53,145 nucleotides of DNA from Shigella phage 2019SD1. Under the pieces are notes generated by a model that saw only the letters and a list, made by a program, of their open reading frames with translations, was not told the origin of the DNA and did not search any database. The position numbers and the translations under genes are program-made. The DNA is taken from the sequence record MT360681, one strand, 5' to 3'. Each line of letters opens with the position of its first letter. The first letter of the stretch is position 1. This document shows positions 38,748 through 53,145 of this stretch, one piece after another.

Positions 38748-38769
38748 TACCGCACCAATGCTACCCGCA

Positions 38770-39239: not shown

Positions 39240-39292
39240 CGTTTATTTCTCCTTTCGTTTCGGTGAAGTGATTATGCCGTGCTTTTACACCG

Positions 39293-39314: not shown

Positions 39315-39386
39315 GCGTTTGCTTCAAATACTGCGCGAGCAAAACCGCGCGGAGTGAGGGAGCGTAATTGTTTTGTTCTGGCAGAC

Positions 39387-39845
39387 TTACCGCATACTGC
39401 GCGAGGCCCTCATCATTGGATAACGGCTTGCGTTCCGGTTCGATAAATCCGTTGCCGCACCAGATAGCCGTCCTTTTGTGTAGCCATCCTTTAGCGGCAT
39501 CTTGTGGTGAAAAGATCCATCGGATTCGTCAAGGTAGTTACCAAAGTCGCGCGGATTGAAATAAAAATCAGGCTTGCGCCATAGCGTTGATAGTCGGCCT
39601 ACAGGATTCTCAGCCATCCATGGAACACCGAAATGATTCCCGACAGTTTCAACCATGATTGCATTTTTGAGAGCAACCTTAATATCATCATCGCTTCGCG
39701 CGTGCTTGATTCCTGATTGGGCAAACATGGTGCAGTCTGGAAACCCAAATACAATATCTGGTTTTGGAATATCCATATTACTGATTCTTTCAATGAAATT
39801 TTCATCAATCCACATATTCACATAATGCAGATTTTCATGCCTCAT
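39387..39845 (-). CDS. Hypothetical protein with loose resemblance to C5-cytosine methyltransferase motifs IV and VI (tentative)
   Basis: ..DIVFGFPDCTMFAQSG.. about 40 aa before ..WMAENPVGRL..; no motif I found. Confidence 0.2.
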   Translation of the reverse strand: MRHENLHYVNMWIDENFIERISNMDIPKPDIVFGFPDCTMFAQSGIKHARSDDDIKVALKNAIMVETVGNHFGVPWMAENPVGRLSTLWRKPDFYFNPRDFGNYLDESDGSFHHKMPLKDGYTKGRLSGAATDLSNRNASRYPMMRASRSMR

Positions 39846-39978
39846 CTTAATGAAATATTCGCCGTGATTGCCTTCATCAGAAAACTTCCAACCCCAAAGA
39901 ACATTACTTGCAGATAACTTTCATCGTTTATTTCTCCTTTCGTTTCGGTGAAGTGATTATGCCGTGCTTTTACACCGC

Positions 39979-40000
39979 TTTTAACAAAAGTGCTATTTTG
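39979..40000 (-). promoter_or_regulatory. Conserved promoter-like motif copy inside 102-bp displaced duplicate (39225-39326 = 39911-40012)
   Basis: Identical to copy at 39293-39314. Confidence 0.4.
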
Positions 40001-40377
40001 CGTTTGCTTCATTAAAGCAATAGCATTGATAGCCAGCCTTCGCATATTCAAGCAGCATGATTCCAGATCCATCAAACATTGAGTAAGCAACTTAACAATC
40101 ATCGTTGATCTGCAAATGCAGCGCCGCGTAAAGTAATCGTGCCAATTCATTTCATCACCTTAAAACGGAAAGCATCGCGGGCAGTTAGGATCGAAGTTGC
40201 ATCCGCAATCATTAACAATCATCGTTGATCTGCAAATGCAGCGCCGCATTCATTATCCATATCCATTTCACCAAGCGCATCATCAAGCGTCCTGATTTTA
40301 TATGCTACTTCAAGCGCGGCCTCTTTATTCAGCCCAGCATCTTCCGCTTTTGCAGTCGCTCAAAAATCCATCCCGCT

Positions 40378-40487
40378 CATTTCATAAACTCCTTGATAAC
40401 AATCATAATAATAGCAAGACCAGCAGTGACAACTAAAAGACCAGCAAGGCCAATCATCACGCCAAATAAAATATCAAGAAATTTCAT
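40378..40487 (-). CDS. Small hydrophobic membrane protein (36 aa)
   Basis: Minus-strand ATG after AGGTGA-like RBS; translation MKFLDILFGVMIGLAGLLVVTAGLAIIMIVIKEFMK. Confidence 0.3.
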
Positions 40488-40536
40488 CATTATTATCACC
40501 TTTATTTAAAGGGAGGCTAAACCTCCCGTTTATTAA

Positions 40537-40763
40537 TTAGATAGCCTTCCAGCTTTCAATAAACATGCTGTTTTCTTCCAGCAGTTTAATCAATTCTTCG
40601 CGTGTATATTTGCGGATTTTACTACCGGATGTGAGCCAACAACAAATACACCTTTACCGCTCGTGATTGTTAACTGATTGATTCCGCAAGATTTATCCAT
40701 CTTAATGGCGACGCGGTGATGTGCATCAACAGTGTGCATGATGTTAGTTACTTTAGCTTTCAT
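40537..40763 (-). CDS. Hypothetical protein (frame disruption near 3' end)
   Basis: Minus-strand ATG preceded by promoter motif variant at 40818-40837 and TATAGT hexamer. Confidence 0.3.
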
Positions 40764-40817
40764 TATGCAATCCTCATTATATTTGGTGTGTTAACTATAC
40801 CGTGTTTTAGAAATATT

Positions 40818-40837
40818 GTTTAGCAATTCGTGCTATC
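40818..40837 (-). promoter_or_regulatory. Conserved promoter-like motif copy (CGAATTG variant)
   Basis: Minus-strand reading GATAGCACGAATTGCTAAAC followed by TATAGT. Confidence 0.45.
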
Positions 40838-40937
40838 AGTTGAAATAGCCGTGGCGCTTTGCTCGCTTGCCGTCTCCGCCATAATGATCATTTGCAACGG
40901 CTACCATCCGTGCATTATGGAATATTATTAGCTTCAT

Positions 40938-41219
40938 CTAATTAATGCCAACAACGTTAAAACTTACAACTTTTGTTCCGCTAAACACATACGCTTCAAC
41001 AGATCCACCAAATAAACTGATTTTTCCCTTGCCGTACTGCGCATTCATATTGCGCCAAACCGTAATGTTAGAACATGACGCGTTACCATTCTTGATAAGA
41101 TTATCAATCTTTTTCCTTAGATCATGATAATCAAGCCAGAATCTATAAGCGCGTTGTTTAATTCGCGCCGCCTTGATTGTTTCGGCTGAGTTTTTAAAAT
41201 CGCTGTTTTTGTAGGCCAT
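40938..41219 (-). CDS. Hypothetical protein (93 aa)
   Basis: Minus-strand ORF. Confidence 0.4.
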   Translation of the reverse strand: MAYKNSDFKNSAETIKAARIKQRAYRFWLDYHDLRKKIDNLIKNGNASCSNITVWRNMNAQYGKGKISLFGGSVEAYVFSGTKVVSFNVVGIN

Positions 41220-41412
41220 TACACAACCTCCATAATAGTATTGAATCCACGCAGTTTGAAAGCATTGCCATGTTTAACAACGTTCCATGTCAGGCCGGAG
41301 TGATACGCAACCATATCATCAAGATCAATGGTGATGATAGCTCCTTTCTTAAAGATTCCTTTCTCGTGAGTGGTGTCACGATGTACAACTTTAACATCAA
41401 CTTGATTTTCCA
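41219..41412 (-). CDS. Hypothetical protein (64 aa)
   Basis: AGGATTTAAAG plus ATG (minus) downstream of promoter motif 41468-41489 and stem-loop with TATATT. Confidence 0.4.
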
Positions 41413-41551
41413 TCTTTAAATCCTCGTTCGTTGTCGATGCGCTTAATATACCAATCAGAGGCGCATCGGTTTTAACAAAAGTGCTATTAGTCCAGAATTC
41501 GATTTCGCGCTCGCCAGTTAACGGATCTTTAATCCAGAATCCGAGCGGCAT
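41413..41551 (-). CDS. Small hypothetical ORF reading through the promoter motif (stop not resolved)
   Basis: Strong GAAGGAGAAATAAAG RBS plus ATG at 41551 (minus). Confidence 0.2.
41468..41489 (-). promoter_or_regulatory. Conserved promoter-like motif copy
   Basis: Minus-strand reading TAATAGCACTTTTGTTAAAACC then 7-bp stem GATGCGC..GCGCATC enclosing TATATT. Confidence 0.55.
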
Positions 41552-41564
41552 CTTTATTTCTCCT

Positions 41565-41808
41565 TCATTGCTGATCGCGTTTAACTGCCCACAGAACATC
41601 GCAGGACTCGTTAATGAATTTTGCCATGCGTTTATCATCACCAGCAGGAATTAGCGCGTTAAACTCGCGTTTGCTACTGAACACAGTCACTTTATGGAAT
41701 GATGCGAACGGCATCGACGGGAACTCTACTGTTTGCGTCAAGATCCGCAATCCCATCTTTTGGCCCCACCGGCCTCTGCAACTTCAAAATCCACTTCATT
41801 AATCATTT
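41565..41808 (-). CDS. Hypothetical protein (frame disruption near start)
   Basis: Minus-strand ORF 41565-41756 with in-context ATG at about 41808 in a neighbouring frame. Confidence 0.25.
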
Positions 41809-42075
41809 CTTGATCTCCTCAGCAATAAACTTCAGTACTTTGCGCAAAAACACTTCGTTATTGATGGTCGCTGGCAATTCCTCTTTCACTTCTTGCGGCA
41901 GGTAAACGTTGTTATGCCGTGTTAAGCAATCGTAGTTGATACGATAAGAGCAAAGCCACTCGCAATCGTTATCCGCTTCCCAAATGCAGAGTTGCAGAAC
42001 ATCACCGAAATCCTCAACAGTCAGATCCAGACCGTGACGTTTTGCAAAGTTGAAAGTGGTTTTGCTGATGTTCAT
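41803..42075 (-). CDS. Hypothetical protein (90 aa), first gene of minus-strand early block
   Basis: AGGAGATAGCA plus ATG (minus) downstream of promoter motif 42137-42157. Confidence 0.45.
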   Translation of the reverse strand: MNISKTTFNFAKRHGLDLTVEDFGDVLQLCIWEADNDCEWLCSYRINYDCLTRHNNVYLPQEVKEELPATINNEVFLRKVLKFIAEEIKK

Positions 42076-42136
42076 TGCTATCTCCTGATGGGTATCTCGT
42101 TTCGATGTGTCTAATGTACCCGATCAGGGCAATTCA

Positions 42137-42157
42137 GTTTTAACAAAAGTGCTATTT
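42137..42157 (-). promoter_or_regulatory. Conserved promoter-like motif copy
   Basis: Minus-strand reading AAATAGCACTTTTGTTAAAAC then imperfect stem enclosing TACATT, RBS AGGAGA, ATG. Confidence 0.55.
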
Positions 42158-42229
42158 GCTGACTGGTCATTATTCCAACTATTCCATTAATCAGGAATAA
42201 CAGGAATAAATCATTCGCGATCACCGGAT

Positions 42230-42740
42230 TGTGAGAACTTGAGTTTGATCAATTTTAATCAAGTGATTAACTTTTTGTGTGGAGGGATAGAGAAATGCGG
42301 TCCTCTTGCGCCCTTTCCGGCAATCCCGGCGCGCACATCTGTTATCTTCTGTTATCGCTGTTATGCGTGTTATTCCGGCGTGGAATCGCATAACAAAAAT
42401 AACAAGATAAATCCATATAACATACTAAAAATAAGGATTATTTATTTATATGTATCTATAAATTACTATCTGTTATGTGTGTTGTGTGGTCATATTGATG
42501 TCTGATGTATTCTTGGTGATTGTGTGTGGTTGTGTGTTGGCAGGTATGTATATATGGGGTGGGGGCGAATCCGCGCATTTTTAGATAACACGCCAAAATA
42601 ACATTGATTTATAAGGAGAAAAACGAGAATCTTGTTGTGTTCTGAAAAGGCAACATTGAAAAACTGCCAATAACAATAAAAACATTTGACGCGCCAGAAT
42701 GGTAAATGATAATGCAGCCACTGAATCACGAGAGGGTATA
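42230..42740. promoter_or_regulatory. Divergent intergenic control region between minus-strand and plus-strand early gene blocks; AT-rich with GTGT-rich repeats
   Basis: No ORFs; repeats similar in style to 19930-20130 (TTATGTGTG, GTGGTTGTGTGTTGG). Confidence 0.4.
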
Positions 42741-42744
42741 AAGC

Positions 42745-43085
42745 ATGAGTGAATCTGTATTTACAAATGAGCTTCGCAAGGTTGCGACTGCGCTCGCATC
42801 TGGAACACATGAATCTATTCAGATACCTGAAAGATGGGTAAGGCAGCACCGGAGGGTAAGAAGTCAGCCAGCAATGCCGGATCATATCTGCGTCAGATTA
42901 TGGGGCGCGTTCCAGAAGTGGCGGAGAAGGGTAGAGTTTCAGTATCAAAGAAACCTTACGGCCCTGATAGCGAATATTTCGGCGAAAATTACTTTGATGT
43001 GGCGATTGTTAGTGCGCCTAATCGCAGGGTGTACAACAAGGCGGCGCTTGAGAAGGCTGTAGCGAAAGCAAAACGCCGTTGCTGA
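42745..43085 (+). CDS. Hypothetical early protein (frame change near 42835)
   Basis: GAGAGGGTATAAAGC plus ATG; two overlapping ORFs that join into one with a 1-bp correction. Confidence 0.35.
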
Positions 43086-43223
43086 GTCAATGCTTAAAGT
43101 TTCACCAAGCCCGGCGAACTACTCGCCAGATGAATATGAAACACTTGCTAAGGCGATTGCAGACTTTCACGCGATCATTAAAGAAACATATCTTAACGAT
43201 GAGGAGAATTTGACTCTGACCGG

Positions 43224-43244
43224 AAATAGCACTTTTGTTAAAAC
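43224..43244 (+). promoter_or_regulatory. Conserved promoter-like motif copy
   Basis: AAATAGCACTTTTGTTAAAAC followed by CATAAT and hairpin, then RBS and ATG at 43323. Confidence 0.55.
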
Positions 43245-43322
43245 TCAAAAACGATAACCAAGCATAATAAATCACATAGGGCGGCACGGCGTCGCCCACA
43301 AAACCAATCAGGAGAAATCACC

Positions 43323-43607
43323 ATGTTAAAACTTGCTGACATCAAATTCCCAATCACCTTCGAATCTCGCGGAGTTGGTCATTTCATTTTACCGATGAGA
43401 AAACATGCCATAAGGTTTGGTCGCATAGCGACAAGTCAGAGCCATCAACTATGGAAATTGATCACTTCATTGATAAGCATAATCAGCACTACATCTCATA
43501 TAAAGACTACGGCTACGCAATGCCGCTACACCTGTTTGCACTATAAGCCATACAAAGGCCGTGTTACCAGTGCGCTCACCGGAACGCGCAGAGATTCCGA
43601 TTGTTGA
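43323..43607 (+). CDS. Hypothetical early protein, paralogous N-terminus to next gene
   Basis: AGGAGAAATCACC plus ATG; ..IKFPITFESRGVGHF.. vs ..IKYPITFHTVGNS.. in next gene. Confidence 0.3.
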   Translation: MLKLADIKFPITFESRGVGHFILPMRKHAIRFGRIATSQSHQLWKLITSLISIISTTSHIKTTATQCRYTCLHYKPYKGRVTSALTGTRRDSDC

Positions 43608-43631
43608 GATGAAAACCTGCGACTATAAAAA

Positions 43632-44774
43632 TTGTGGTGCTTAAGCGTGGATAACATCAAGTATCCGATCACGTTCCACACGGTTGGTAACTCAACTATT
43701 CGATTCACATCTCGCGACAATGGCGTTTATAGCGACGGTCAGAAATCAGAGTTGAAAGTTGATTTCTTTGTCAATGGTCACAACAAATTCAATCCGCACA
43801 ACGAAAAAGATAAGGTGTACTACGTGGAAGATATTACAAAACACTTGTTTGGCGAAACTCCATTCGGCGGCGGGAAGACGTCAATTCAACAAATCATTGA
43901 CGATCAGATCCGCAAGGCAGCCGTTGAAATGAAAGCGCCCGGAGGCTGGCGTATTGATAAGGGCGCCTTTACCATTCAAGAAATCGTAACGCAGGGCGCG
44001 ATTGAAGACATGCCGCTTGGCGCTTCAATCATCGGCATCAAAGACGACAACGGCGACTGGCAGGATGTTTCATTCCTGTTAAGCAGATCGAAGTACACGA
44101 CGACCTGTTTTGCCTCCCGGCGCATCATGGCAGCTACAAGGGCAAAGCCTTTGCCGCAGAGCTTGACATCAAGCGCGGAACGATTGTTAAGTGGAAGGCA
44201 AAAGTGTAAAGATAACATCAAGTATCCGATCACGTTCCACACGGTTGGTAACTCAACTATTCGATTCACATCTCGCGACAATGGCGTTTATAGCGACGGT
44301 CAGAAATCAGAGTTGAAAGTTGATTTCTTTGTCAATGGTCACAACAAATTCAATCCGCACAACGAAAAAGATAAGGTGTACTACGTGGAAGATATTACAA
44401 AACACTTGTTTGGCGAAACTCCATTCGGCGGCGGGAAGACGTCAATTCAACAAATCATTGACGATCAGATCCGCAAGGCAGCCGTTGAAATGAAAGCGCC
44501 CGGAGGCTGGCGTATTGATAAGGGCGCCTTTACCATTCAAGAAATCGTAACGCAGGGCGCGATTGAAGACATGCCGCTTGGCGCTTCAATCATCGGCATC
44601 AAAGACGACAACGGCGACTGGCAGGATGTTTCATTCCTGTTAAGCAGATCGAAGTACACGACGACCTGTTTTGCCTCCCGGCGCATCATGGCAGCTACAA
44701 GGGCAAAGCCTTTGCCGCAGAGCTTGACATCAAGCGCGGAACGATTGTTAAGTGGAAGGCAAAAGTGTAAATAG
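43632..44774 (+). CDS. Hypothetical early protein; exact tandem ~561-bp duplication (43650-44210, 44211-44771); C-terminus frame-disrupted
   Basis: 380-aa ORF consisting of two identical 187-aa units. Confidence 0.35.
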   Translation: MWCLSVDNIKYPITFHTVGNSTIRFTSRDNGVYSDGQKSELKVDFFVNGHNKFNPHNEKDKVYYVEDITKHLFGETPFGGGKTSIQQIIDDQIRKAAVEMKAPGGWRIDKGAFTIQEIVTQGAIEDMPLGASIIGIKDDNGDWQDVSFLLSRSKYTTTCFASRRIMAATRAKPLPQSLTSSAERLLSGRQKCKDNIKYPITFHTVGNSTIRFTSRDNGVYSDGQKSELKVDFFVNGHNKFNPHNEKDKVYYVEDITKHLFGETPFGGGKTSIQQIIDDQIRKAAVEMKAPGGWRIDKGAFTIQEIVTQGAIEDMPLGASIIGIKDDNGDWQDVSFLLSRSKYTTTCFASRRIMAATRAKPLPQSLTSSAERLLSGRQKCK

Positions 44775-44790
44775 CACGAATTGTTAAAAC
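44769..44790 (+). promoter_or_regulatory. Conserved promoter-like motif copy (CGAATTG variant)
   Basis: AAATAGCACGAATTGTTAAAAC followed by GGCC-GTATAAT-GGCC. Confidence 0.55.
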
Positions 44791-44841
44791 TCAAATGTGG
44801 GGCCGTATAATGGCCTCACTTTCAACGAAGGGGATAAAACG

Positions 44842-45062
44842 ATGTACATTAACAAGAATATGAAATGCGTTTCCGTTAACTATGGTTGTGCTGGAATGTT
44901 CAAGCCCGGCGAAATCTATACGGCGCAGAAACTGAAATCATCAACCTGATCCTTTTACGTAAGCAACAGTAAGGGACATCGCATGTTCCTGAACGGCGGA
45001 GAAGGCACTAAGGTTATGGCGCACGCCATGGTGATTGCTGAATTTGAGGAAGTGAAGAAATG
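44842..45062 (+). CDS. Small hypothetical protein (frame disruption)
   Basis: AAGGGGATAAAACG plus ATG downstream of promoter motif 44769-44790. Confidence 0.3.
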
Positions 45063-45063
45063 A

Positions 45064-45609
45064 TTGTCTACGTTAAAATACGAATTTGAACTTTGGGGCA
45101 GCAAATACCATTTTTCCACGAGCAAGCCGATTGTTATCGTTGATCTGGACGGCACTTTATCCGATGGAGCGCATCGCTTGCACCTGCTTCCGACAGAAGA
45201 TTTGCACCTTACAGAAAGCTGGTCTGAGTTCAACAAAGCGGCTGTTGGAGATTCGCCGATCAAGAGTACGGTTGCAGTGGTTAACGGTTTGTGGATGTCA
45301 GGATTTGCCATTGTTATCCTGACCGGACGCAGCGACGAAGTTATGGCGGATACCTGCAAGTGGCTTAGTGAAAGCGGCGTCAAGTACGATGCGTTAATCA
45401 TGCGCCGCAAGAAAGACAACCGCAAAGATACGATCATCAAAGAAGAAGTATTGCGCGCTATCGGACTGGAAAACATTGTGTGCGCTTTTGATGATTCGCC
45501 GAACGTGGTTAAGCACTTCCGCAGCCCGGGAATCACAACCTATCAGGTGACGGAATACGACAAGCCACATAGTCACATCCAATCGCACGGCGTGGAGGAA
45601 TTAAAATGA
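45064..45609 (+). CDS. HAD-superfamily phosphatase-like protein (possible nucleotide or polynucleotide 3'-phosphatase)
   Basis: ..IVIVDLDGTLSDG.. DxDGT motif I of HAD hydrolases. Confidence 0.4.
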   Translation: MSTLKYEFELWGSKYHFSTSKPIVIVDLDGTLSDGAHRLHLLPTEDLHLTESWSEFNKAAVGDSPIKSTVAVVNGLWMSGFAIVILTGRSDEVMADTCKWLSESGVKYDALIMRRKKDNRKDTIIKEEVLRAIGLENIVCAFDDSPNVVKHFRSPGITTYQVTEYDKPHSHIQSHGVEELK

Positions 45610-45767
45610 CACGGATTCTATTTGTGATTATCACAAGCTACAATTCAGCCGCCATTGAGTCTCGCGAGTTCCACGGTGAATCAAGATGTCAGGCCGCGAG
45701 AGAGCAAGTGATTTTGCATATGTCAGATAACGATAAAGAAGTTGAAGCATTCTGCGTTCGTAAATAG
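45606..45767 (+). CDS. Small hypothetical protein
   Basis: ATG overlapping previous stop; stop codon embedded in promoter motif 45763-45782. Confidence 0.3.
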   Translation: MTRILFVIITSYNSAAIESREFHGESRCQAAREQVILHMSDNDKEVEAFCVRK

Positions 45768-45782
45768 CACTTTTGCAAAACA
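45763..45782 (+). promoter_or_regulatory. Conserved promoter-like motif copy
   Basis: AAATAGCACTTTTGCAAAAC followed by GGGCTT-GCGGTATAGT-AAGCCC. Confidence 0.55.
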
Positions 45783-45836
45783 GATTATCGGGCTTGCGGT
45801 ATAGTAAGCCCATCGACAACAAACGAGGATTGAATC

Positions 45837-46133
45837 GTGGTTAATAAAGTTGAGTTTTTCAAAGCGGTAGAAAAGATTGACGGCGCGCCAAGTTTCTTTG
45901 CTATCCATTCCATTGACGGCGAAGACGTTGCATACAACGTGATTAGTCGAGACGGTATATCAAAACTTAGCGACCGGTGGGTTATATTGTGGCGAACGGT
46001 AAATGTGCATGGCGGTTATATTGTGGCGAACGGTAAATGTGCATGGCTAGATTCGCAACTAGAGCCGCGCCGCCGCGACATGCAAAATCCAGTTCTGCTT
46101 TACACGCTGGTAATTGAAGGAGTCAACAAATGA
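45837..46133 (+). CDS. Hypothetical protein; 41-bp tandem repeat at about 45968-46049
   Basis: GTG start after ACGAGGA RBS. Confidence 0.35.
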   Translation: MVNKVEFFKAVEKIDGAPSFFAIHSIDGEDVAYNVISRDGISKLSDRWVILWRTVNVHGGYIVANGKCAWLDSQLEPRRRDMQNPVLLYTLVIEGVNK

Positions 46134-46315
46134 TTTGGTTACTTGTATTTTTATTGGTTTTCTTTTATATTTCAGGATTATTCATATTCCGCGCATTGGT
46201 TAAAGTGTGTGATTGCACTGATAAAGATCAGCCTCTTGTTCTGATGTTCTGGTTTGTGTGGTTTTGGGTGGCGCTTTACCAGATTGTGCGGGATGAAAGC
46301 GGCTTTAAGTGGTGA
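46130..46315 (+). CDS. Small membrane protein
   Basis: Hydrophobic N-terminal half MIWLLVFLLVFFYISGLFIF. Confidence 0.35.
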   Translation: MIWLLVFLLVFFYISGLFIFRALVKVCDCTDKDQPLVLMFWFVWFWVALYQIVRDESGFKW

Positions 46316-46397
46316 TTCTTACTATAGCGCATTCATGCAGTGAAGAAGAAGCGCTACAGCTACGACGAGCACCGCGAGAGCGTCGTTTAAACAGCCT

Positions 46398-46946
46398 ATG
46401 TTTGATATTGCATTCTCAATGCTTGGCGTTTACCGATATGACGAGTTCATTGATCTGTATTTTGATATTGCATTCTCAATGCTTGGCGTTTACCGATATG
46501 ACGAGTTCATTGATCTGTATAACGACCGCGAGCAGAAAGAAAAGCCTCAAGCAATCTTGCAAGGAAAGTCGCCGCGCCAGTTCATGATCTGGATTAGCGA
46601 AGAAGTCATGAAGCCAGCTTTTGGCGAGCAGTATTTCGGAAATCGCATGGTTGAGCAAGTGCACGAGATGTACAGAGATTTGGCTGTTGTAATTAGTGAT
46701 GGCGGATTCACTGAAGAAATCAAGCCGCTCATTAAGGCAGGCCATGAAGTTCACATTTGCAGACTGCATCGCGAAGGTTTTACGTTTGATGGCGATTCGC
46801 GAAACTATATTGACCTGAGCGGATACCATCACCGAGTAAAACATTACGACTTCACAATGATTGATGGCGATCCAGAAAAACTGTTGACGAGATCATCAAA
46901 ACTATCCAGTGGAAACACATTAAGATCAAATAGCACGAATTGCTAA
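46398..46946 (+). CDS. Hypothetical protein; 63-bp tandem duplication at N-terminus (46398-46460, 46461-46523)
   Basis: ORF; stop embedded in promoter motif 46928-46949. Confidence 0.3.
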   Translation: MFDIAFSMLGVYRYDEFIDLYFDIAFSMLGVYRYDEFIDLYNDREQKEKPQAILQGKSPRQFMIWISEEVMKPAFGEQYFGNRMVEQVHEMYRDLAVVISDGGFTEEIKPLIKAGHEVHICRLHREGFTFDGDSRNYIDLSGYHHRVKHYDFTMIDGDPEKLLTRSSKLSSGNTLRSNSTNC

Positions 46947-46949
46947 AAC
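46928..46949 (+). promoter_or_regulatory. Conserved promoter-like motif copy (CGAATTG variant)
   Basis: AAATAGCACGAATTGCTAAAAC followed by GGTT-GCGGTATAGT-AACC. Confidence 0.55.
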
Positions 46950-47005
46950 AGATTAAAGGGGTTGCGGTATAGTAACCACACACCAAGCAACGAAAGGAAA
47001 TGACA

Positions 47006-47299
47006 ATGCGAGTTTTAATTGTTTACGAAACAAATCCAGACGGCGTCAATTTCTATGATATCGAAATGACAAGCGAACAATATGAGATCGTGAAAACCGC
47101 GCAAGGTAAGTTTATTAATTGCCACGAGGACACGCCGGGGACTGAATACCTCAACATTGCGCTATGTTCAAATCTTGAATATCTGGACGAATGCGATCAG
47201 TCTCTTCCTCATGCGTGCGCATGGAAAGATAAAACAATCATTGATCTGGAAAACCCAGCCAAGTTTGATGCAATCATTTACACTGGGATTATGTGCTAA
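47006..47299 (+). CDS. Hypothetical protein
   Basis: AAAGGAAATGACA plus ATG; downstream of promoter motif. Confidence 0.45.
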   Translation: MRVLIVYETNPDGVNFYDIEMTSEQYEIVKTAQGKFINCHEDTPGTEYLNIALCSNLEYLDECDQSLPHACAWKDKTIIDLENPAKFDAIIYTGIMC

Positions 47300-47319
47300 A
47301 TAGCACGAATTGCCAAAAG
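47298..47319 (+). promoter_or_regulatory. Conserved promoter-like motif copy (CGAATTG variant)
   Basis: AAATAGCACGAATTGCCAAAAG followed by TATAAT. Confidence 0.5.
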
Positions 47320-47373
47320 CGGGGTGCAATGCCTCGCTATAATGCAAACACCAATCAACGAGAGGGCTTGAAC

Positions 47374-47778
47374 ATGTTAGAACTTCACAAAATCCGCGTA
47401 GGCACAAAATTTGTTGTAACACGGGTATGTGGTGAGATGTGCGGTATTCGTAAAGGCGAGATTGTAACGGCTTCAGATCGCTATATCGGATCGACCAAAG
47501 AGTTTAACAGACCACGCATCAAGAATGGCTATATCATAACTCGCCGTTTGGGATTTGATCATTATTGCGTAGTGGCAACTCAAGGCGTTTTGATTGAGCT
47601 TAAGCGAATCAGCGATCATCGCGGCTGCCATATTAAGACAATGAAAACACCATTTCAGCGAGCGCGATACGATGCGCGACGGATGCGCCGACTTGCTCGA
47701 AATGCGATCAAGTTCAAAAAGCACGGCAGTAATTTTTACAGAACGTACAAAGGGATTGCGCGAAATGATGGGAAATAA
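47374..47778 (+). CDS. Hypothetical basic protein
   Basis: GAGAGGG RBS plus ATG; downstream of promoter motif 47298-47319. Confidence 0.45.
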   Translation: MLELHKIRVGTKFVVTRVCGEMCGIRKGEIVTASDRYIGSTKEFNRPRIKNGYIITRRLGFDHYCVVATQGVLIELKRISDHRGCHIKTMKTPFQRARYDARRMRRLARNAIKFKKHGSNFYRTYKGIARNDGK

Positions 47779-47908
47779 CAACAACGCAACCAATCCTAAG
47801 CCGCCATTTGATTTTCATGAAATCATGATTGTGTTATTCTTGATTCTCTTAGTTTTTATTCAGTGAGGGCAGCACTATGGTTTTAATGCACTAAAACGAA
47901 TCTTCACT

Positions 47909-48265
47909 ATGGAGTTCAATAGCTACAGTGAGGCGCGTGAATACGCTAAAAATTGCACAAGTTCATACCTTACAAGCTGCGTTTGCTGGTTGTCAAAAGT
48001 GCGACGTATGGGATCACGTATGAAAAGAGTAATTATCACTTTTATTGCCCTTATCGCTGGTTCCCATTTGGCTTATGGGTATAGCGGCATTGTTGAGTCA
48101 GTCGGCGGAATGATTATCTTCTGGCTGGCGCATATTACGGCTACGGCGATGGATTTAAAATGGCAAGCGTTACATCCTGACCGGGAAGAAATAATGTTTA
48201 ACCGCGCCGCTTCGGTGGCGCTAAAAGGAGGAAACAAATGGCTAAAAGCAATCGTAAGATGTTGA
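47909..48265 (+). CDS. Hypothetical membrane protein (start uncertain, possibly 48020)
   Basis: Hydrophobic segments ..VIITFIALIAGSHLAYGYSGIVESVGGMIIFWLAHI.. Confidence 0.3.
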   Translation: MEFNSYSEAREYAKNCTSSYLTSCVCWLSKVRRMGSRMKRVIITFIALIAGSHLAYGYSGIVESVGGMIIFWLAHITATAMDLKWQALHPDREEIMFNRAASVALKGGNKWLKAIVRC

Positions 48266-48525
48266 TTAACGCATTCGAAAAGGCAGCGCTTGAGCGTGGT
48301 TGGAATGACTCATTCCACACAGCAAATTGCATCCGACGTTACGGATTCAAGAATTGCCGCTCTTGGGCGCGTCAAATGGCTTCATGGTATGATCTTGATG
48401 CGCATTACCTTGATATGGATTGCGCCCTTGTTGAAATGATTGAGCAGGCCGCACTAGAGGATCGACCATTAACGCAATCTGATTTTGACGATTTTGTGCG
48501 CGATGAAATCTATTACATGAGCTAA
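48238..48525 (+). CDS. Hypothetical protein
   Basis: AAAGGAGGAAACAA plus ATG; stop overlaps promoter motif 48523-48543. Confidence 0.45.
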   Translation: MAKSNRKMLINAFEKAALERGWNDSFHTANCIRRYGFKNCRSWARQMASWYDLDAHYLDMDCALVEMIEQAALEDRPLTQSDFDDFVRDEIYYMS

Positions 48526-48543
48526 TAGCACTTTTGTTAAAAC
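48523..48543 (+). promoter_or_regulatory. Conserved promoter-like motif copy
   Basis: TAATAGCACTTTTGTTAAAAC followed by stem-loop GAGG..CCTC. Confidence 0.5.
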
Positions 48544-48599
48544 TTCCGCGAGGGCATTTGTTAAAGTGTCCTCATTGAAGCGAAACAGAGGAAATCAAA

Positions 48600-48812
48600 A
48601 TGAAAATTCGAATCACCGGGGTTGACATTGACCGCAACGACGGAAGCATTACCCTTGAGCAATGCGGGTTCAAAGTTGGTGACATTGTAGATGTTGACGG
48701 ATTCTTTCGCGATGGTTCTTACTGCGTGTTGGCAATCCGCAACACGGAAGAAATTCGAATCGGTGATAACATCGGCGTAAACCATGACGAATGCGAGGTA
48801 GTAGAAGAATGA
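48600..48812 (+). CDS. Hypothetical protein
   Basis: AGAGGAAATCAAA plus ATG downstream of promoter motif. Confidence 0.45.
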   Translation: MKIRITGVDIDRNDGSITLEQCGFKVGDIVDVDGFFRDGSYCVLAIRNTEEIRIGDNIGVNHDECEVVEE

Positions 48813-49110
48813 TCACGATTAACCTTTCAGAAGAGCAAGCAAAGAAACTCCTGCACGCTGTAGGTTCTCGTGCACTTTGCGGATCAACTGATGAAATGAT
48901 TATTGATCATGAGGTTGCAAGAGAGCTTTTACTCAGCTTGATCAAAAATTCTCACCACGTCCGACTGACGCGGCAGAAACTGCAAAATGGCTTGCTGAGA
49001 ATGGATACACGGCTTTAAAAGTTCATAACTGGAAGCGAAAGCGCAAAAGACTGCTGATCGTGTATCTGGTGTTGTTTCTCGCTGCATTATGGTTGATGTG
49101 GAGAAATTAA
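48809..49110 (+). CDS. Hypothetical protein with C-terminal transmembrane segment (frame disruption)
   Basis: Alternative frame ends ..KRKRLLIVYLVLFLAALWLMWRN. Confidence 0.3.
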
Positions 49111-49111
49111 A

Positions 49112-49360
49112 ATGATTTACATTCACACTTACGGGATCGGGAAGTTTGCCAACAAGCAGATCCGAAATATTTACGACGCGCTCGACGATGCGAAAGAACA
49201 GCAACGCGTTTTAGGTGGTGTCATTCAGGCTTTTGAGTCGGTGGAAAATATTGATGACGATCTTGCCGAGCGAGAGTACATAAAGGAGCTTGTCGTTGAT
49301 GAAGTGTCTTGCATTATCGACGAGTTGAGCACTGACGCGCCGATTCGCAAGAAACCTTGA
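49112..49360 (+). CDS. Hypothetical acidic protein
   Basis: 82-aa ORF. Confidence 0.4.
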   Translation: MIYIHTYGIGKFANKQIRNIYDALDDAKEQQRVLGGVIQAFESVENIDDDLAEREYIKELVVDEVSCIIDELSTDAPIRKKP

Positions 49361-49634
49361 GCACGGTTCGTCGGAATGGGATTGCTGGAAGGTTAAGACG
49401 CTAAACAATCTCCGCAATATCCTTTATGGAAAATTTAACGAAAGCGAATAGCTCTTAGGGAGCCTCAATAGCACTTTGACGAGGCATTTTTAGGTAAGGT
49501 GATTCAATGGATAACTACATAAAGCCGTCGCAGTGGTGCGCACAGAAGTAAGAGGAAGCATTAGAGCGCGGCGATACTGAAACAGCAATGCACTATTTCG
49601 AAATGTACAACTTGTGGAAGGGTAGAGGTCTGTA

Positions 49635-49868
49635 ATGTTTGGAATGAACGAGGCACAATTCAACGCTGCAAAACGCCGGGCTAAGAAGTGCGGCGAGGCA
49701 ATGAAGGCGGATGTGGAAAAGCGCGGGAAGTATGTTGATGAAGTTATGAAGGGCATTATTGCCGAACATTATCAGCCAGTTGCGCCAATGCTGACAATCA
49801 CCCAATTCATCTGGTTGTGTGGTTATCTTCGTGGGAGATGGGGAACGCATTTGACCGCGAATGATTGA
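49635..49868 (+). CDS. Hypothetical protein
   Basis: 77-aa ORF. Confidence 0.4.
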   Translation: MFGMNEAQFNAAKRRAKKCGEAMKADVEKRGKYVDEVMKGIIAEHYQPVAPMLTITQFIWLCGYLRGRWGTHLTAND

Positions 49869-50008
49869 CAAATATTTCCTGATTGGTTAACATCTTCGGC
49901 GTTTACATAAGAGCGGCGTTAGTGCCGAACGGGTGGCGCGGTTGCCACGCAACAACGGCGATATGCAGGTTTTACCGTAAGACGTATCGCCTTTTTATAG
50001 GTGAATAT

Positions 50009-50242
50009 ATGGAAAAGTACAAATTAACTTTCATGTTTAACAGTATGGTGATGAATCCATTAAATGGTTACGCTTGCAATAGCTTTTCTGTTACCGTTAA
50101 TGAGGATGAAATTGATGATGATGGTAAATTTATTCGAATAGGTGATTACATTTATCCTATTCACAATATCAATTGCATCAAGCGCGAGATTGTTAAAGAT
50201 GAAGTACAAAGTAAAGCTGACAATCAGGCGAATGGGGCGTAA
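50009..50242 (+). CDS. Hypothetical protein
   Basis: AGGTGAATAT plus ATG. Confidence 0.35.
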   Translation: MEKYKLTFMFNSMVMNPLNGYACNSFSVTVNEDEIDDDGKFIRIGDYIYPIHNINCIKREIVKDEVQSKADNQANGA

Positions 50243-50381
50243 TTGCTCGTCATGCAGACAAAGTTTTGAATGTGAGGTTGAAGCGCGCGGAGAGCTTGAG
50301 GCGGCAGCAAGAGCAAAAGAGTTGTCCGGCGCTAATCAAGACACTCACCAGTTTTCAATAGATCTTGTAAGGAAAATATCA

Positions 50382-50492
50382 TGAGTTCTGTAATTATTGG
50401 TTTGGTTGCTTTAATCGTTGGTGTTCTAATCGGCTTTGTTGCTGTATCTTTCGTGGTGGCTGTTGGCGTTCGCTATAAGTCAAAAAGGTGAA
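50382..50492 (+). CDS. Small membrane protein (36 aa)
   Basis: AAGGAAAATATC plus ATG; translation MSSVIIGLVALIVGVLIGFVAVSFVVAVGVRYKSKR. Confidence 0.3.
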
Positions 50493-50623
50493 TTTGCTTT
50501 AGCGTTTTGGGATGAAGAGCAGAAAGTTTGGCAGGTTCGCGGTCACTATTTATCAATCGGTGGCAGGATTCACAGCACTATGAAAACAAATCCAGAGAAA
50601 GTAAAATACAAGTATTGACCAAC

Positions 50624-50649
50624 TACCCGCCAAATGGCGGGTTTTTATT
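50624..50649 (+). terminator. Rho-independent terminator closing the early gene block
   Basis: CCCGCC-AAATG-GCGGG followed by TTTTTATT. Confidence 0.6.
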
Positions 50650-50809
50650 GCCTGCAATTTGTCTATAATGATGCTTTGTTATAAAGGAGGGCGCATTATG
50701 GCTAAAACGTTAAGCCAGTAGTAAAGGCTTGCAATTTTAAAAACTATATAATAAGCAATATGGCGATATAGCAAAAGGGAAGTATTTAAATTAATGGCAG
50801 TTCAGGAGT

Positions 50810-51250
50810 ATGACAAAGGCGCACAAGTACACGCCGGAACAGGTATTTGATCTGGCTGTGCGTTACTTTACGTGGGCCGAGGAAAACCATATAGAGGCTG
50901 CGGAAACTGCATCCTTTCAGGGTGACGTATACGAAAGCAAGATTCACAAGCCGCGCGTGTTCACCTTAAATGGATTCCGCTTATTCGCTGGCCTTTCTGC
51001 TTCCGTACTTGAAAAATGGCGACGTGAGCGAGGATTCAGCGAGGTTATGGACTTTATTGACGGCGTTGTTTATGAGCAAAAATTCCAGCTTGCCGCAAAC
51101 AATATTGTTAACGCCGGATTCATTGGTAAGGAGATCGGCATTGAAAAGCCAGCTACCGTTACCATTGAGAATAACACAAGCGCCAGCGTTGACGCTGTAA
51201 CGGCGGATGAAGTCAAAGAGGCGGTAATTGACATTCTGGAGAAGATATAA
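50810..51250 (+). CDS. Terminase small subunit (probable)
   Basis: 146-aa ORF immediately upstream of large terminase; N-terminal ..YTPEQVFDLAVRYFTWAEEN.. typical of small terminase DNA-binding regions. Confidence 0.5.
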   Translation: MTKAHKYTPEQVFDLAVRYFTWAEENHIEAAETASFQGDVYESKIHKPRVFTLNGFRLFAGLSASVLEKWRRERGFSEVMDFIDGVVYEQKFQLAANNIVNAGFIGKEIGIEKPATVTIENNTSASVDAVTADEVKEAVIDILEKI

Positions 51251-51257
51251 TGCTGAT

Positions 51258-51520
51258 ATGATCAAGATCAATCCCGTTCAGCGAGATAAAGATAAGGTTA
51301 CGCGAGCAATGGACGCAGCGCCAGTAATGCGCGCCGGACGCGTGGCACTTCCAGAATATCATCCTATGCTGGCTGAGATACTCGCTGAAGTTGCGGCGTT
51401 CACATTCGATGATTCGCATCCTCATGATGATATTGTTGATAACATCATTGATGCTGTTAACATTGAAATGAACATGGCAGATGATCCGGTAGGAAGAATG
51501 AAAAATTGGCAGGTTTGCGG
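51258..51520 (+). repeat. Displaced copy of the large-terminase C-terminal coding segment (more complete than the copy at 52796-52980), fused to a promoter-motif copy
   Basis: 51258-51520 matches 52796-52980 except that the downstream copy lacks ~75 bp; occupies the position where the terminase N-terminus would be expected. Confidence 0.75.
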
Positions 51521-51523
51521 AAC

Positions 51524-51545
51524 AAATAGCACGAATCGACAAACC
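51524..51545 (+). promoter_or_regulatory. Conserved promoter-like motif copy (variant) upstream of large terminase reading frame
   Basis: AAATAGCACGAATCGACAAACC. Confidence 0.3.
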
Positions 51546-51589
51546 AATATAGGAAGACTTAACAGCGGCGCAAAACGCGCCGTTAAGGA

Positions 51590-52982
51590 AATGAGCGAAT
51601 ATTCATTCGAAAAGATGATCCGCATTTGGTTTCAACTTCTCGGGGCAAAGGTTCTTAGGAAACTGGCATTTCAGTTACCTATGCAGCGAAGTGCAGGAGC
51701 TATGGCCGGAAAGCTGGCAAAGGCGAGCGCAAAGGACTTGATTGTAACCGATGTCGGCAAGGTTAAATTGCAAGTTAACTCGCGTTCTATCGGTGGTCAG
51801 GTTACTGGTCTGCGTGGCGGCTACATGGATGATGGATTTACTGGTATGCTGGTTCTTGATGATCCAGACAAGCCGGATGACATGCTTTCTAAGGTGAAGC
51901 GCGAAGCCGGACACATGCGCCTAAAGAACACGGTGCGATCACGTCGAATGAAGGACACAACGCCAATCGTAATGGTCCAGCAACGGCTACACGTCAATGA
52001 TTCAACATGGTTCATGACAAACGGCGGCATGGGCGGCATCCAGTTTAAGGTGGTCAGTATTCCGGCGCTCGTTACTAAGGAATATCGCGAAACGCTTCCT
52101 GATTGGTTAAAGCCTGAGTTTGATCGCGATGTTTTATCCAGTAAGCCAGTAATGATTGATGGTGTTGCTCATTATTCATTCTGGCCTGCTAAGAAAGCGC
52201 GGAGGAATTACTTGCACTTCGAAATGCTGATCCGTACACGTTCGCCAGTCAGTATCAGCAACAGCCTGTTGCGCTTGGCGGTAACGTGTTTAAAACGGAG
52301 TGGTTTCAGTATTACGGCAGCAGCGAGAAATGCACGCTACCAAAACCGGATCGCTTTGAGTATACATTTATCACGGTTGATACCGCGCAGAAAACGGGTG
52401 AGCTTAACGACTACTCCGTATAAAGATCGCGTTTACTTCATTGATGGTGTTCGCGGAAAATGGGAAGCACCAGACCTTGAAACTAATTTTGTTGCGTTCG
52501 TTAATCAGTGCTGGAAGCGTAATAAAGAATGCGGAACGTTGCGAAGGATTCATGTTGAAGATAAGTCATCTGGCACTGGCTTGATTCAGAGCGCAGCGAA
52601 AAAATTATATAAAGATCGCGTTTACTTCATTGATGGTGTTCGCGGAAAATGGGAAGCACCAGACGAAACTAATTTTGTTGCGTTCGTTAATCAGTGCTGG
52701 AAGCGTAATAAAGAATGCGGAACGTTGCGAAGGATTCATGTTGAAGATAAGTCATCTGGCACTGGCTTGATTCAGAGCGCAGCGAAAAATTATGATCAAG
52801 ATCAATCCCGTTCAGCGAGACTGGCTGAGATACTCGCTGAAGTTGCGGCGTTCACATTCGATGATTCGCATCCTCATGATGATATTGTTGATAACATCAT
52901 TGATGCTGTTAACATTGAAATGAACATGGCAGATGATCCGGTAGGAAGAATGAAAAAATTGGCAGGTTTGCGGAACAAATAA
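51590..52982 (+). CDS. Terminase large subunit (N-terminal region uncertain; internal frame change near 52195; 180-bp tandem duplication 52425-52610 approx)
   Basis: ..ADPYTFASQYQQQPVALGGNVFKTEWFQYYG.. and C-terminal ..FTFDDSHPHDDIVDNIIDAVN.. typical of terminase nuclease domain; Walker A-like ..SRGKGS.. only visible in a shifted frame near 51600. Confidence 0.55.
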
Positions 52983-52985
52983 TCA

Positions 52986-53012
52986 AAGGCTGGTAAATCC
53001 AGCCTTTTTATT
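52986..53012 (+). terminator. Rho-independent terminator after large terminase
   Basis: AGGCTGG-TAAAT-CCAGCCT followed by TTTTATT. Confidence 0.6.
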
Positions 53013-53034
53013 GAGGAAAGATATACCAGAGGAA

Positions 53035-53145
53035 ATGGTTTCCCGGCTTTACTGTTGACGGCGTGGCAGATGAGGCGGCATTCCGTTCCTTGTGGGATGA
53101 GAAGCGACTCAATGCAAAATTATTGATGCGCTTTGTTGGTCGCGT
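53035..53145 (+). CDS. Portal protein N-terminal segment (continues at position 179 after wrap)
   Basis: ATG at 53035 after AGGAAAG-like RBS and terminase terminator; downstream sequence identical to 179-255 apart from one A-run length difference; the frame needs a 1-bp correction. Confidence 0.35.

Follow-up and report, generated by a model that had tools for sequence, protein, structure and literature searches.

Phage TLS, a T1-like member of the Drexlerviridae, carries 18 intergenic copies of a 21-nt direct repeat (DR), which are co-oriented with transcription and lie approximately 76 nt upstream of start codons (PMC11447400). The repeat is also found in T1, Rtp, and Rogue1 (DeGiulio, Ramsey, Kropinski, and Misra 2024, PMC11447400). 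Its function was left open by those authors, who suggested a stoperator, an enhancer, or an UP element, reported canonical sigma70 promoters only at P01, P51, and P57, and named the products of the left arm "presumptive early gene products" (PMC11447400). In T4-type myoviruses, hyperplastic genome regions contain promoter-early stem-loop (PeSL) cassettes (PMC2839356, PMC4122927). These consist of an AT-rich upstream element, a sigma70 promoter, and a stem-loop with G-T pairs that lies mostly between the −35 and −10 hexamers or overlaps the −10, followed by a Shine-Dalgarno (SD) sequence and ATG (PMC2839356). PeSLs flank ORFans, and their stem-loop terminated transcription in a reporter assay (PMC2839356); recombination between PeSLs inserts or deletes gene cassettes (PMC2839356, PMC4122927). 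Here, both systems are compared with a block of small genes at positions 42230 to 50650 of the 53,145-nt sequence of Shigella phage 2019SD1 (MT360681), the whole of which is referred to as the window.

The block is the conserved small-gene arm of T1-like phages, located between the pac-proximal noncoding region and terS. As such it is an ordinary, already catalogued T1-like feature that is of interest chiefly for its regulatory grammar; the DR architecture makes testable how transcription is regulated in T1, a classic phage. The best explanation of the locus as a whole, with a probability of approximately 0.7, is an accessory arm of eight units with composite DR cassettes and a distinct last unit. 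The arm would comprise eight tandem units free of terminators, read to the right from the pac-proximal control region, with one strong terminator before terS. Unit 1 would be driven by P01, a canonical sigma70 promoter, and would encode a winged-helix-like DUF7174 protein. Units 2 to 7 would share one order of parts, in which the upstream stop codon overlaps the DR (−51 to −32) and is followed by a 19-nt GC-rich spacer, (TGn)TAtaaT, CA at +1, an A/C-rich leader, an SD, and ATG. The DR would probably be read by a protein (a phage activator, or a host factor such as the C-terminal domain of the RNA polymerase alpha subunit [alpha-CTD]) and not solely by sigma region 4. When transcripts read through from upstream, the hairpin located between DR and +1 would work in their sense RNA as an attenuator or an insulator, and the conserved DRs would serve as recombination linkers through which gene cassettes are gained and lost; in combination, these parts would form a PeSL-like system. 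In unit 8, a near-consensus sigma70 promoter would produce a structured leader of approximately 110 nt before the last three small genes and, past the terminator, the late operon.

Architecture of the DR cassettes

A 20-nt motif (AATAGCACTTTTGTTAAAAC) and its variants, with at most three mismatches allowed, had 16 matches in the window against 0.69 expected. This motif is the published 21-nt Drexlerviridae DR, and the TLS-type and window repeats share the consensus aaATAGCACnnnTTGnTAAAA, orientation, distance to the start codon, and T, G, and A subtypes. A regular expression for the DR core, applied to six Drexlerviridae from five genera, yielded 107 copies (18 in the window, 20 in ESh4, 21 in TLS, 19 in T1, 15 in Rtp [Braunvirinae], and 14 in KP36 [Webervirus]); the same expression gave 0 copies in Dhillonvirus HK578. 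A literature search with the motif as a sequence string returned nothing relevant. The initial annotation had described the motif as a promoter motif copied in front of most of the small early genes of this block. The repetition far exceeds chance, and the element is not specific to the block: it is a family-wide predicted promoter element and not a mark of early genes, and elsewhere in the window it also precedes replication, recombination, and lysis-region genes. Beyond what is reported for TLS, the new features are the fixed 19-nt spacing to the −10, the missing −35, a sense-biased hairpin, and a DR-bounded indel. A known motif is thereby given a concrete architecture and a PeSL-like interpretation, in which the cassette also marks a gene indel.

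Most DR copies (95 of 107) had a −10-like hexamer within 5 to 40 nt. The hexamer lay exactly 19 nt after the TAAAA of the repeat in 65 of these 95 copies and 18 to 20 nt after it in 77, against a flat frequency of approximately 3% per offset at random positions. Among the 62 distinct promoters with the offset of 19 nt, A at −11 and T at −7 were invariant, TG was present at −15/−14 in 39%, and the predicted start fell on CA in 49. An A/C-rich leader (cATCGAAAC.AA..AGGA) was conserved downstream of the start and was followed by the SD and ATG. The median distance from the end of the DR to the start codon was 56 nt, or approximately 75 to 77 nt from the start of the DR, in agreement with the value of approximately 76 nt for TLS. 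Relative to the predicted start, the DR spans approximately −51 to −32, with an A/T tract (T5, A4-5, or GAATT) at approximately −43 to −37 and TAAAA at −36 to −32; its most conserved part, ATAGCAC, includes G and C. DRs often overlap the stop codon of the upstream gene, with TAA or TAG lying within aaATAG.

The TTGnTA of the DR is located 21 to 22 bp upstream of the −10; where a canonical −35 would lie, the sequence reads AAAAnn. Within the block, a canonical −35 at 16 to 18 bp is present only in P01 (42686) and in the promoter of the structured leader (49865). DR promoters therefore appear to lack a −35, and the DR would take its place, because it sits exactly 19 nt upstream of the −10. Promoters of this build need a DR that either recruits a protein or functions as an uncommon kind of upstream element. 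Resemblances to other promoter and RNA elements were considered and rejected. The likeness of TAGCAC/TTGC to a sigma54 promoter, judged by reading the sequences, fails on its spacing, which is short by 2 nt, and on the −10 of sigma70 type that comes after it; the CCCCAT found after the −10, which recalls sigma32, lies approximately 30 nt from TTGnTA; and a likeness to the rrn and lambda boxA (GCACUUU versus GCUCUUU) is present in the T-type DR only and not in the G or A types.

Within the 32 nt from the DR to +1 lies a G/C-rich inverted repeat, the arms of which vary widely in sequence. Some hairpins enclose the −10 (GGGGTA/TACCCC, AAGGCCA/TGGCCTT, and GAGGGCA/TGTCCTC), and others take up the spacer and directly adjoin the −10 (GCCCGG/CGGGC and CCAGG/CCTGG). 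Across 73 distinct promoters the mean folding z score was −2.06, with 56% below −1.64, compared with −0.05 for random 32-mers from the same genomes. The sense strand was the more stable in 59 promoters and the antisense strand in 13 (−8.7 versus −6.4 kcal/mol), and sense folds contained 51 G·U pairs where antisense folds contained 21, with base composition balanced. This bias points to use of the hairpin in sense RNA, that is, in read-through transcripts from upstream units; formation in non-template single-stranded DNA is less likely. The same strand bias disfavors a DNA cruciform. It also disfavors an antisense terminator, a structure suggested by the order of hairpin and TTTTAAC on the other strand.

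Eight predicted promoters were located for the approximately 23 plus-strand genes of the block, all on the plus strand. The first gene is preceded by P01 (42686 to 42713; TTGACG-16-GATAAT; scan score, 10/12), which equals TLS P01 (ttgacg...gataat). DR cassette 1 (43225 to 43275) comprises a DR at 43225 to 43243, the −10 CATAAT at 43263 to 43268, and a predicted start at approximately 43275. DR cassette 2 (44770 to 44818), of the G type, has its DR at 44770 to 44789 and TATAAT at 44806 to 44811, with the hairpin GGGGCC/GGCCTC around the −10. In DR cassette 3 (45763 to 45812; DR, 45763 to 45782; TATAGT, 45800 to 45805), the hairpin GGGCTT/AAGCCC encloses the −10, and the ESh4 ortholog of this cassette folds with a z of −3.0. 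Two further DR cassettes, at 46929 to 46948 and 47299 to 47318, flank gene 11. In DR cassette 6 (48524 to 48574), the DR at 48524 to 48542 is followed by an extended −10 (TGtTAAAGT, 48559 to 48567), which is enclosed by the hairpin GAGGGCA/TGTCCTC; this fold has a free energy (dG) of −14.2 and a z of −5.0. The initial annotation had placed a promoter copy before most open reading frames (ORFs) and had spoken of individual promoters. The six DR cassettes and two canonical sigma70 promoters fall short of that number, and the genes instead form eight short operons. Standard scans were uninformative overall: the 31 sigma70-like sites compare with an expectation of 31.3, and the 16 terminator-like sites with one of 15.1. 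Only individual promoter and terminator sites backed by conservation were used.

The inserted cassette at 46929 to 47318 (+) consists of a DR (46929 to 46948), gene 11 (47000 to 47299), and a second DR (47299 to 47318). A single DR in ESh4 (40548 to 40528) aligns to both of these repeats, and KarlJaspers likewise has one; the 350 nt between them (insertion 46949 to 47297) are absent from both relatives. Salmonella T1-like phages carry the whole DR-gene 11-DR unit with 72% identity.

Two further observations concern the repeat. Antisense DR copies are kept inside the late head and tail region, at 9032 to 9013 (−) and 4744 to 4726 (−) in the window, with counterparts at 26909 and 30669 in ESh4, 18849 and 15085 in T1, and 15041 in TLS. 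At least one of them has a −10 at the standard 19-nt spacing, and they may be antisense promoters facing into structural genes. The peptide NSTFVK(T/S), which recurs in unrelated ORFs wherever naive ORF calling runs through a DR (43225 to 43257, 41470 to 41488, and 39979 to 39997), is the DR translated in frame and not a protein motif.

Structured leader of the last unit

The last unit, whose different build the initial annotation had not recognized, begins with a near-consensus sigma70 promoter at 49865 to 49893 (+; TTGACA-17-TAACAT), which in relatives has a TGn-extended −10. This promoter is also kept in T1, TLS, KP36, and Rtp and in 52 distinct leaders from IMG/VR; it is absent from the published list of TLS promoters. 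The leader itself (49900 to 50008, +) starts with CGTnnACAnAnGAG (49900 to 49913) and continues with hairpins H1 (49914 to 49927), H2 (49933 to 49948; loop GCGGTT), and H3 (49957 to 49991; CCGTAA in the loop) and with a T5 run (49992 to 49996).

A pattern scan of IMG/VR produced the 52 distinct true leaders, and covariation was assessed on 18 diverse ones. In these 18 leaders, 93% of the cells of H1 and H2 were paired, compared with 24% to 45% in slid controls, and compensatory double changes were found in seven of nine pairs. The H1/H2 covariation score was 0.76 against 0.24 in shuffles, and none of 500 shuffles reached it. The H3 stems also covary (GCGGG/CCCGC, GGGGG/CCCCC, GCCGC/GCGGC, and GCCGT/ACGGC) around the conserved CCGTAA loop. 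A covariance model of H1 and H2 gave exactly one match per genome in six of six Drexlerviridae, always at this position; Rtp and KP36 were excluded from its training set and were still matched. The model had no match in Dhillonvirus. No Rfam match was obtained over 38000 to 53145 at an E value of ≤1 and no paper on the leader was found, so that it appears to be undescribed. A long-range pairing of the leader 5' end with the U-run and SD, present in the minimum free energy fold of the window sequence, was rejected in that it is not conserved in T1 and TLS.

The leader varies among genera in length and in its middle hairpins. In Hanrivervirus and some other genera, H3 (dG, −14) is followed by a T-run and is terminator-like; in T1 and TLS, an SD follows H3 without a T-run, which is absent in others as well. 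What follows the leader also differs. In Rtp (4650 to 4969), the leader is directly followed by tRNA-Arg(UCU) at 4893 to 4969, as identified by ARAGORN, and not by a protein gene; no tRNA was found in the window or in four other relatives. Since the leader is kept whatever lies downstream, a role at the level of transcription or RNA is likelier than control of one protein.

Beyond the block, the T1 operon for packaging, head, and tail (8322 to 29628) contains 11 co-oriented intrinsic terminators, 6 of which end 9 to 19 nt before the next start codon. Because 9 to 19 nt leave no room for a promoter, the downstream genes in T1 need read-through of the terminators, and antitermination of the put or nut type was considered for this reason. 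The leader, with its three covarying hairpins and what would be the best sigma70 promoter of the genome, could represent a new family of cis-acting regulatory RNA across the Drexlerviridae that lets transcription pass the block terminator and approximately 10 terminators of the late operon by put/nut-like processive antitermination. We consider this proposal speculative and unlikely. If it were true, the antitermination leader and DR promoters dependent on a phage factor, for instance the winged-helix-like product of the first gene, would give T1-like phages a three-tier transcription program. Attenuation, stabilization or processing of the transcript, and production of a small RNA are alternative roles. 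Its location at the junction of accessory and late genes makes the leader a candidate for late-gene control. No report of antitermination in T1-like phages was found in the literature searched.

Gene content of the arm and quality of the record

The window phage belongs to the genus Hanrivervirus (Tempevirinae, Drexlerviridae) and is a T1-like virulent siphovirus. A megablast search of 42230 to 50650 against phage records produced 198 matching records, the best of which were Shigella phages ESh4 and pSf-1 and Escherichia phages vB_EcoP_06, KarlJaspers, and vojen (89% to 93% identity). Nucleotide identity to the closest Hanrivervirus genomes (ESh4, pSf-1, and KarlJaspers) was 91% to 93%. The run of short plus-strand genes that had been proposed was recovered at 42745 to 50618, with approximately 23 co-oriented genes. 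Compared by tblastn, 22 of the 25 KarlJaspers block proteins were matched collinearly in the window, and the gene order agrees with those of KarlJaspers, ESh4, TLS, and T1. The left arm of these relatives (ST77 to ST55 in T1, gp01 to gp28 in TLS, and bas06_0065 to 0089 in KarlJaspers) has the same position, strand, and closing terminator as the block, and the phosphatase and P-loop genes are common to both. The block differs from it in that three of the relatives' genes are missing, one DR-bounded gene (47000 to 47299) is extra, and errors of sequencing or assembly disrupt many genes. The intrinsic terminator at the end of the block (50625 to 50647, +), also present in the initial annotation, has a stem at 50625 to 50642 with a dG of −13.8 kcal/mol and is followed by U5; it is conserved in T1 (8322 to 8344), TLS (T28), and KP36. 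It lies upstream of terS at 50810 (Pfam GP3_package), a layout shared with T1, TLS, KP36, and KarlJaspers.

Comparison with ESh4 revealed dozens of small duplicated, inverted, or swapped blocks throughout the window, some within the essential genes portal and terL and within tail genes; examples are 21 to 919, 17304 to 17571, 23716 to 24003, 37506 to 37919, 39223 to 40011, and 51258 to 53023. The block contains perfect tandem duplications of 561, 60, and 33 to 34 nt. Over a collinear 3.35 kb, 12 homopolymer bases were deleted and none were inserted relative to ESh4, compared with a homopolymer difference of 1 for the control pair KarlJaspers and ESh4. The T-type DR has T4 in nearly all window copies and T5 in all relatives, a homopolymer error. 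Because this homopolymer under-calling was one-sided, the control pair was nearly clean, and the repeats differed as T4 versus T5, the frameshifts, premature stops, and duplications were treated as probable assembly or sequencing artifacts of a long-read-like kind and not as biology. At least nine genes of the block are broken (42745, 43323, 44842, 46398, 47903 to 48200, 48809, 49112, 49507, and 50381). The record is unsafe for protein mining without correction, as many of its ORFs are error-made fragments, and several ORFs that had been listed initially are artifacts of frameshift, duplication, or premature stop; the initial annotation had passed over these errors.

All of the following genes are on the plus strand. 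Gene 1 (42745 to 43257) belongs to DUF7174, a family with 84 clusters at 50% identity whose product is winged-helix-like, and is frameshifted in the window (42745 to 43062 and 43090 to 43257). Gene 3 (43323 to 44774) is a homolog of the 296-aa bas06_0069 (phrog_7116, unknown function) and carries the 561-nt duplication (43650 to 44210 and 44211 to 44771). Gene 4 (44842 to 45060), which encodes 72 aa in relatives, has an in-frame stop, across which tblastn gave 96% identity to bas06_0070. The HAD phosphatase proposed at 45064 to 45609 was verified as a 181-aa stand-alone Pnkp-type HAD 3'-phosphatase (Pfam HAD_PNKP, 3e-21; phrog_415, 8e-65) with the motif DLDGT. It matches only residues 202 to 298 of T4 polynucleotide kinase (1LTQ) and 196 to 297 of Pnkp1 (4XRP), and the label "polynucleotide kinase" given to it in relatives is overstated. 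T4 Pnkp has the HAD 3'-phosphatase domain with DxDGT that is also present in the window protein and, in the same polypeptide, an N-terminal P-loop 5'-kinase domain that the window protein lacks. Gene 6 (45606 to 45767) encodes 53 aa of unknown function, gene 7 (45837 to 46133) contains the 33- to 34-nt tandem duplication, and gene 8 (46130 to 46315) encodes 61 aa with two hydrophobic segments. A P-loop nucleoside triphosphatase similar to deoxynucleoside monophosphate (dNMP) kinases (phrog_139) is encoded at 46398 to 46946, with the 60-nt tandem duplication and a C-terminal frameshift; a sequence search of the PDB returned no significant relative. The phosphatase and P-loop genes are near neighbors in T1-like phages. 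They lie 0.8 kb apart in the window, and in KP36 they are relocated together and are adjacent and overlapping (42116 to 43182). The two proteins may form a functional pair, possibly a "split" polynucleotide kinase/phosphatase.

Gene 11 (47000 to 47299) encodes 99 aa (phrog_4658). Genes 12 to 16 comprise a gene of 134 aa (47374 to 47778), a small protein with a C-terminal transmembrane (TM) segment by hydropathy (47765 to 47866), two genes that are garbled by three frameshifts in approximately 100 nt, one of them with a TM segment (47903 to 48200), and a gene of 95 aa (48238 to 48525). Genes 17 to 20b are located at 48600 to 48812, 48809 to approximately 49117 (DUF7180, frameshifted), 49112 to approximately 49427 (frameshifted), 49507 to 49635 (42 aa, with a stop in the window), and 49635 to 49868. 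After the leader come gene 21 (50009 to 50242; 77 aa), gene 22 (50199 to 50384; 61 aa, phrog_2919), and gene 23 (50381 to 50618; 79 aa), a DUF7299 gene with an N-terminal TM segment that is split by a frameshift in the window. Four small block proteins have strong hydrophobic segments. Small membrane proteins had been assigned to ORFs at 46130, 47909, and 50382; hydropathy supports them at 46130, approximately 48020, and 50381 and adds one more at 47765, and the ORF limits at 47909 and 50382 were wrong. The ORF at 47909 is a chimera of two genes, and the supposed 36-aa membrane ORF at 50382 is the N terminus of the DUF7299 gene, which is joined with the ORF at 50436.

For the remaining block proteins, only families of "unknown function" were found in Pfam and PHROGs. 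No defense or anti-defense family and no multigene signature was detected among the block proteins in these databases, and none of the proteins matched a structural family, an outcome that the initial annotation had named as one that would speak against its reading had it occurred. Only two enzymes are recognizable by sequence similarity, the Pnkp phosphatase domain and the dNMP-kinase-like P-loop protein, and both would be of nucleic acid or nucleotide end-processing types. A Stp-like peptide, annotated as "activator of host PrrC anticodon nuclease," is present in TLS (gp05, 1865 to 1945) and Rtp (Rtp6, 2432 to 2524); no Stp homolog was identified in the window.

The noncoding control region at 42230 to 42740 separates the leftward and rightward blocks and contains no conserved ORF. 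Both the divergence of a minus-strand block (initially placed at 38770 to 42075) from this region and the AT-rich character ascribed to it were confirmed, the latter to a moderate degree (GC fraction, 0.376 versus 0.445 for the window). The region is equivalent to the pac-proximal genome ends of T1 (1 to 539) and TLS (1 to 589), both of which are noncoding, and the terminal repeat of the T1 record begins in the T1 region. An array of TGTTAT/ATAACA hexamers occupies 42340 to 42422, with direct copies at 42340, 42350, 42359, and 42368 and inverted copies at 42390, 42399, and 42417; further copies are located at 42471, 42585, 42598, and 42670. The 11 copies in 511 nt, against 0.6 expected, include direct copies spaced 9 to 10 nt apart and are iteron-like. 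The array is shared with ESh4 and was absent from the compared genomes of T1, TLS, Rtp, and KP36, which indicates that it is genus specific; candidate roles are those of a pac site, an origin, and an operator. The leftward block (38737 to 42156, −) has DR cassettes of its own, with DR starts at 42156, 41488, 40837, 39997/39312 (a duplicated copy), and 38787. It includes a Dcm-like C5-cytosine methyltransferase gene (39223 to 40150, −; bas06_0055 in KarlJaspers), which is split by a perfect direct duplication of 685 nt with a DR cassette inside it.

Competing explanations and known regulatory systems

Several points weigh against the reading of the arm as an array of protein-read, recombining DR cassettes. 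Only one clean DR-bounded indel is documented, and most hairpins lack a following U-tract, which makes efficient termination doubtful. In the literature searched, no transcript 5' ends, transcriptome timing, or protein-DNA binding data for Drexlerviridae were found, so promoter activity, early timing, and activator dependence are deductions. In addition, the 39% of DR promoters with an extended −10 would be usable by host RNA polymerase without an activator, and the A/T tracts of the DR are compatible with a role like that of an UP element. These last two points lead to an explanation in which the DR is an UP-like or extended upstream element for host RNA polymerase, contacted by alpha-CTD or, at TTGnTA, by sigma region 4, so that the DR promoters are ordinary strong early promoters that need no phage factor. 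The A/T tract at approximately −43 to −37 and TAAAA at −36 to −32 suit such an element, a −35 is not needed where TGn extends the −10, and the resemblance was noted by the TLS authors (PMC11447400). The explanation is nonetheless doubtful: the most conserved part of the repeat, ATAGCAC, contains G and C, unlike an UP element, which is an A/T-rich tract at approximately −59 to −38 with no specific G/C positions; at 22 bp, the distance of TTGnTA from the −10 exceeds the 16 to 19 bp of sigma70; 61% of DR promoters lack TG; and standard promoter predictors miss the DR sites. The TLS authors also raised the possibility of an operator (PMC11447400), and a stoperator-like DR bound by a phage repressor could shut the units off later in infection. 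The repeat is co-oriented with transcription and lies over the −35 region, where a bound protein could occlude RNA polymerase, and all family members encode a Cro/YdaS-like helix-turn-helix protein from a canonical promoter. An operator would leave promoters without a usable −35 in need of compensation, however, and the locked spacing from DR to −10 (65 of 95 at 19 nt) is typical of a promoter part, unlike the L5 roadblocks inside units; DRs also precede genes of several functional classes. Repression through the DR is therefore judged quite improbable. For the protein-read DR cassettes, activation that depends on a phage factor is tentatively put forward as a possibility, and DUF7174, the first gene and the one with a canonical promoter, is a candidate for the reader of the repeat.

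The other two competing explanations concern the leader and the genes. The leader might have no regulatory role and be a 5' stabilizer of mRNA or tRNA, a substrate for processing, or what is left of a decayed tRNA region, as the tRNA-Arg(UCU) directly after it in Rtp and its variation in length and middle hairpins among genera would allow. This is countered by H1, H2, and H3 kept by compensatory changes across subfamilies, by a conserved promoter, CGTnnACAnAnGAG, and loop motifs (GCGATA and CCGTAA), and by retention of the leader whether a tRNA or a protein gene follows, and we regard it as somewhat doubtful. The block as a whole might hide a novel host-takeover or anti-defense system that acts as a unit, and not independent accessory genes, along the lines of the host-takeover and anti-defense functions with which the initial annotation had associated such arrays in virulent phages. 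Most block proteins lack a known function, and the Stp-like peptide in the arm of relatives, together with the Pnkp phosphatase, is reminiscent of the Stp/PrrC/Pnk conflict of T4. Against a system of this kind, gene content differs cassette by cassette among close relatives, as expected of independent accessory genes, no multigene signature or defense-related family was detected among the block proteins, and a Stp homolog was not identified in the window. A hidden system is thus highly improbable; the virulent-phage accessory arm stands, no host-takeover or anti-defense function was demonstrated, and no new anti-defense system was identified in the block.

The middle promoters of T4 that depend on MotA and AsiA follow a logic analogous to that of the DR promoters, with a good −10, no −35, and a conserved upstream box that could recruit a phage activator made from an early sigma70 promoter. 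The MotA box, (a/t)(a/t)(a/t)TGCTTtA, is centered at −30. Its sequence is not that of the DR, which has its end at −32. Among the block proteins, Pfam and PHROGs revealed no MotA or AsiA homolog; the search elsewhere in the genome was not exhaustive.

For the leader, the systems compared were lambda PR'-6S-tR' (controlled by Q), the put RNA of HK022, and the rrn leader, in each of which a strong sigma70 promoter is likewise followed by conserved stem-loops upstream of a terminator-punctuated operon. The Hanrivervirus leader resembles lambda PR' in ending with a terminator-like hairpin and T-run, which T1, TLS, and others lack, and a PR'-type model was rejected as a general one on account of the missing T-run in T1 and TLS. 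CGTnnACAnAnGAG contains no conserved TAnnnT and no −10-like pause element of the kind used by lambda Q; no Q homolog was seen, and the leader contains no boxA. The put RNA of HK022, which renders RNA polymerase terminator-resistant in cis, has two promoter-proximal stem-loops that are conserved in structure, and H1 and H2 of the leader are alike in this structural respect.

No publication linking PeSLs to T1-like phages was found in the literature searched. PeSLs have a canonical −35, whereas DR cassettes lack one; the 21-nt DR has no sequence similarity to PeSLs and occurs in siphoviruses, that is, in another virus family. Terminator activity and mini-circles have been demonstrated for PeSLs. 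For the DR cassette as a promoter, attenuator, and linker module, the promoter role is strongly inferred from the sequence, and roles in attenuation and recombination are inferred by analogy and from the one indel. Apart from the missing −35 and the separate 21-nt repeat, the two kinds of cassette agree in build and context. In both systems an A/T-containing upstream element, a promoter, and a G/C-rich stem-loop with G·U pairs precede the SD and ATG, and both placement classes of the PeSL stem-loop are present among DR cassettes. In both, the elements accompany small ORFans in a plastic genome region and bound gene insertions or deletions, for which the arm described here provides one case.

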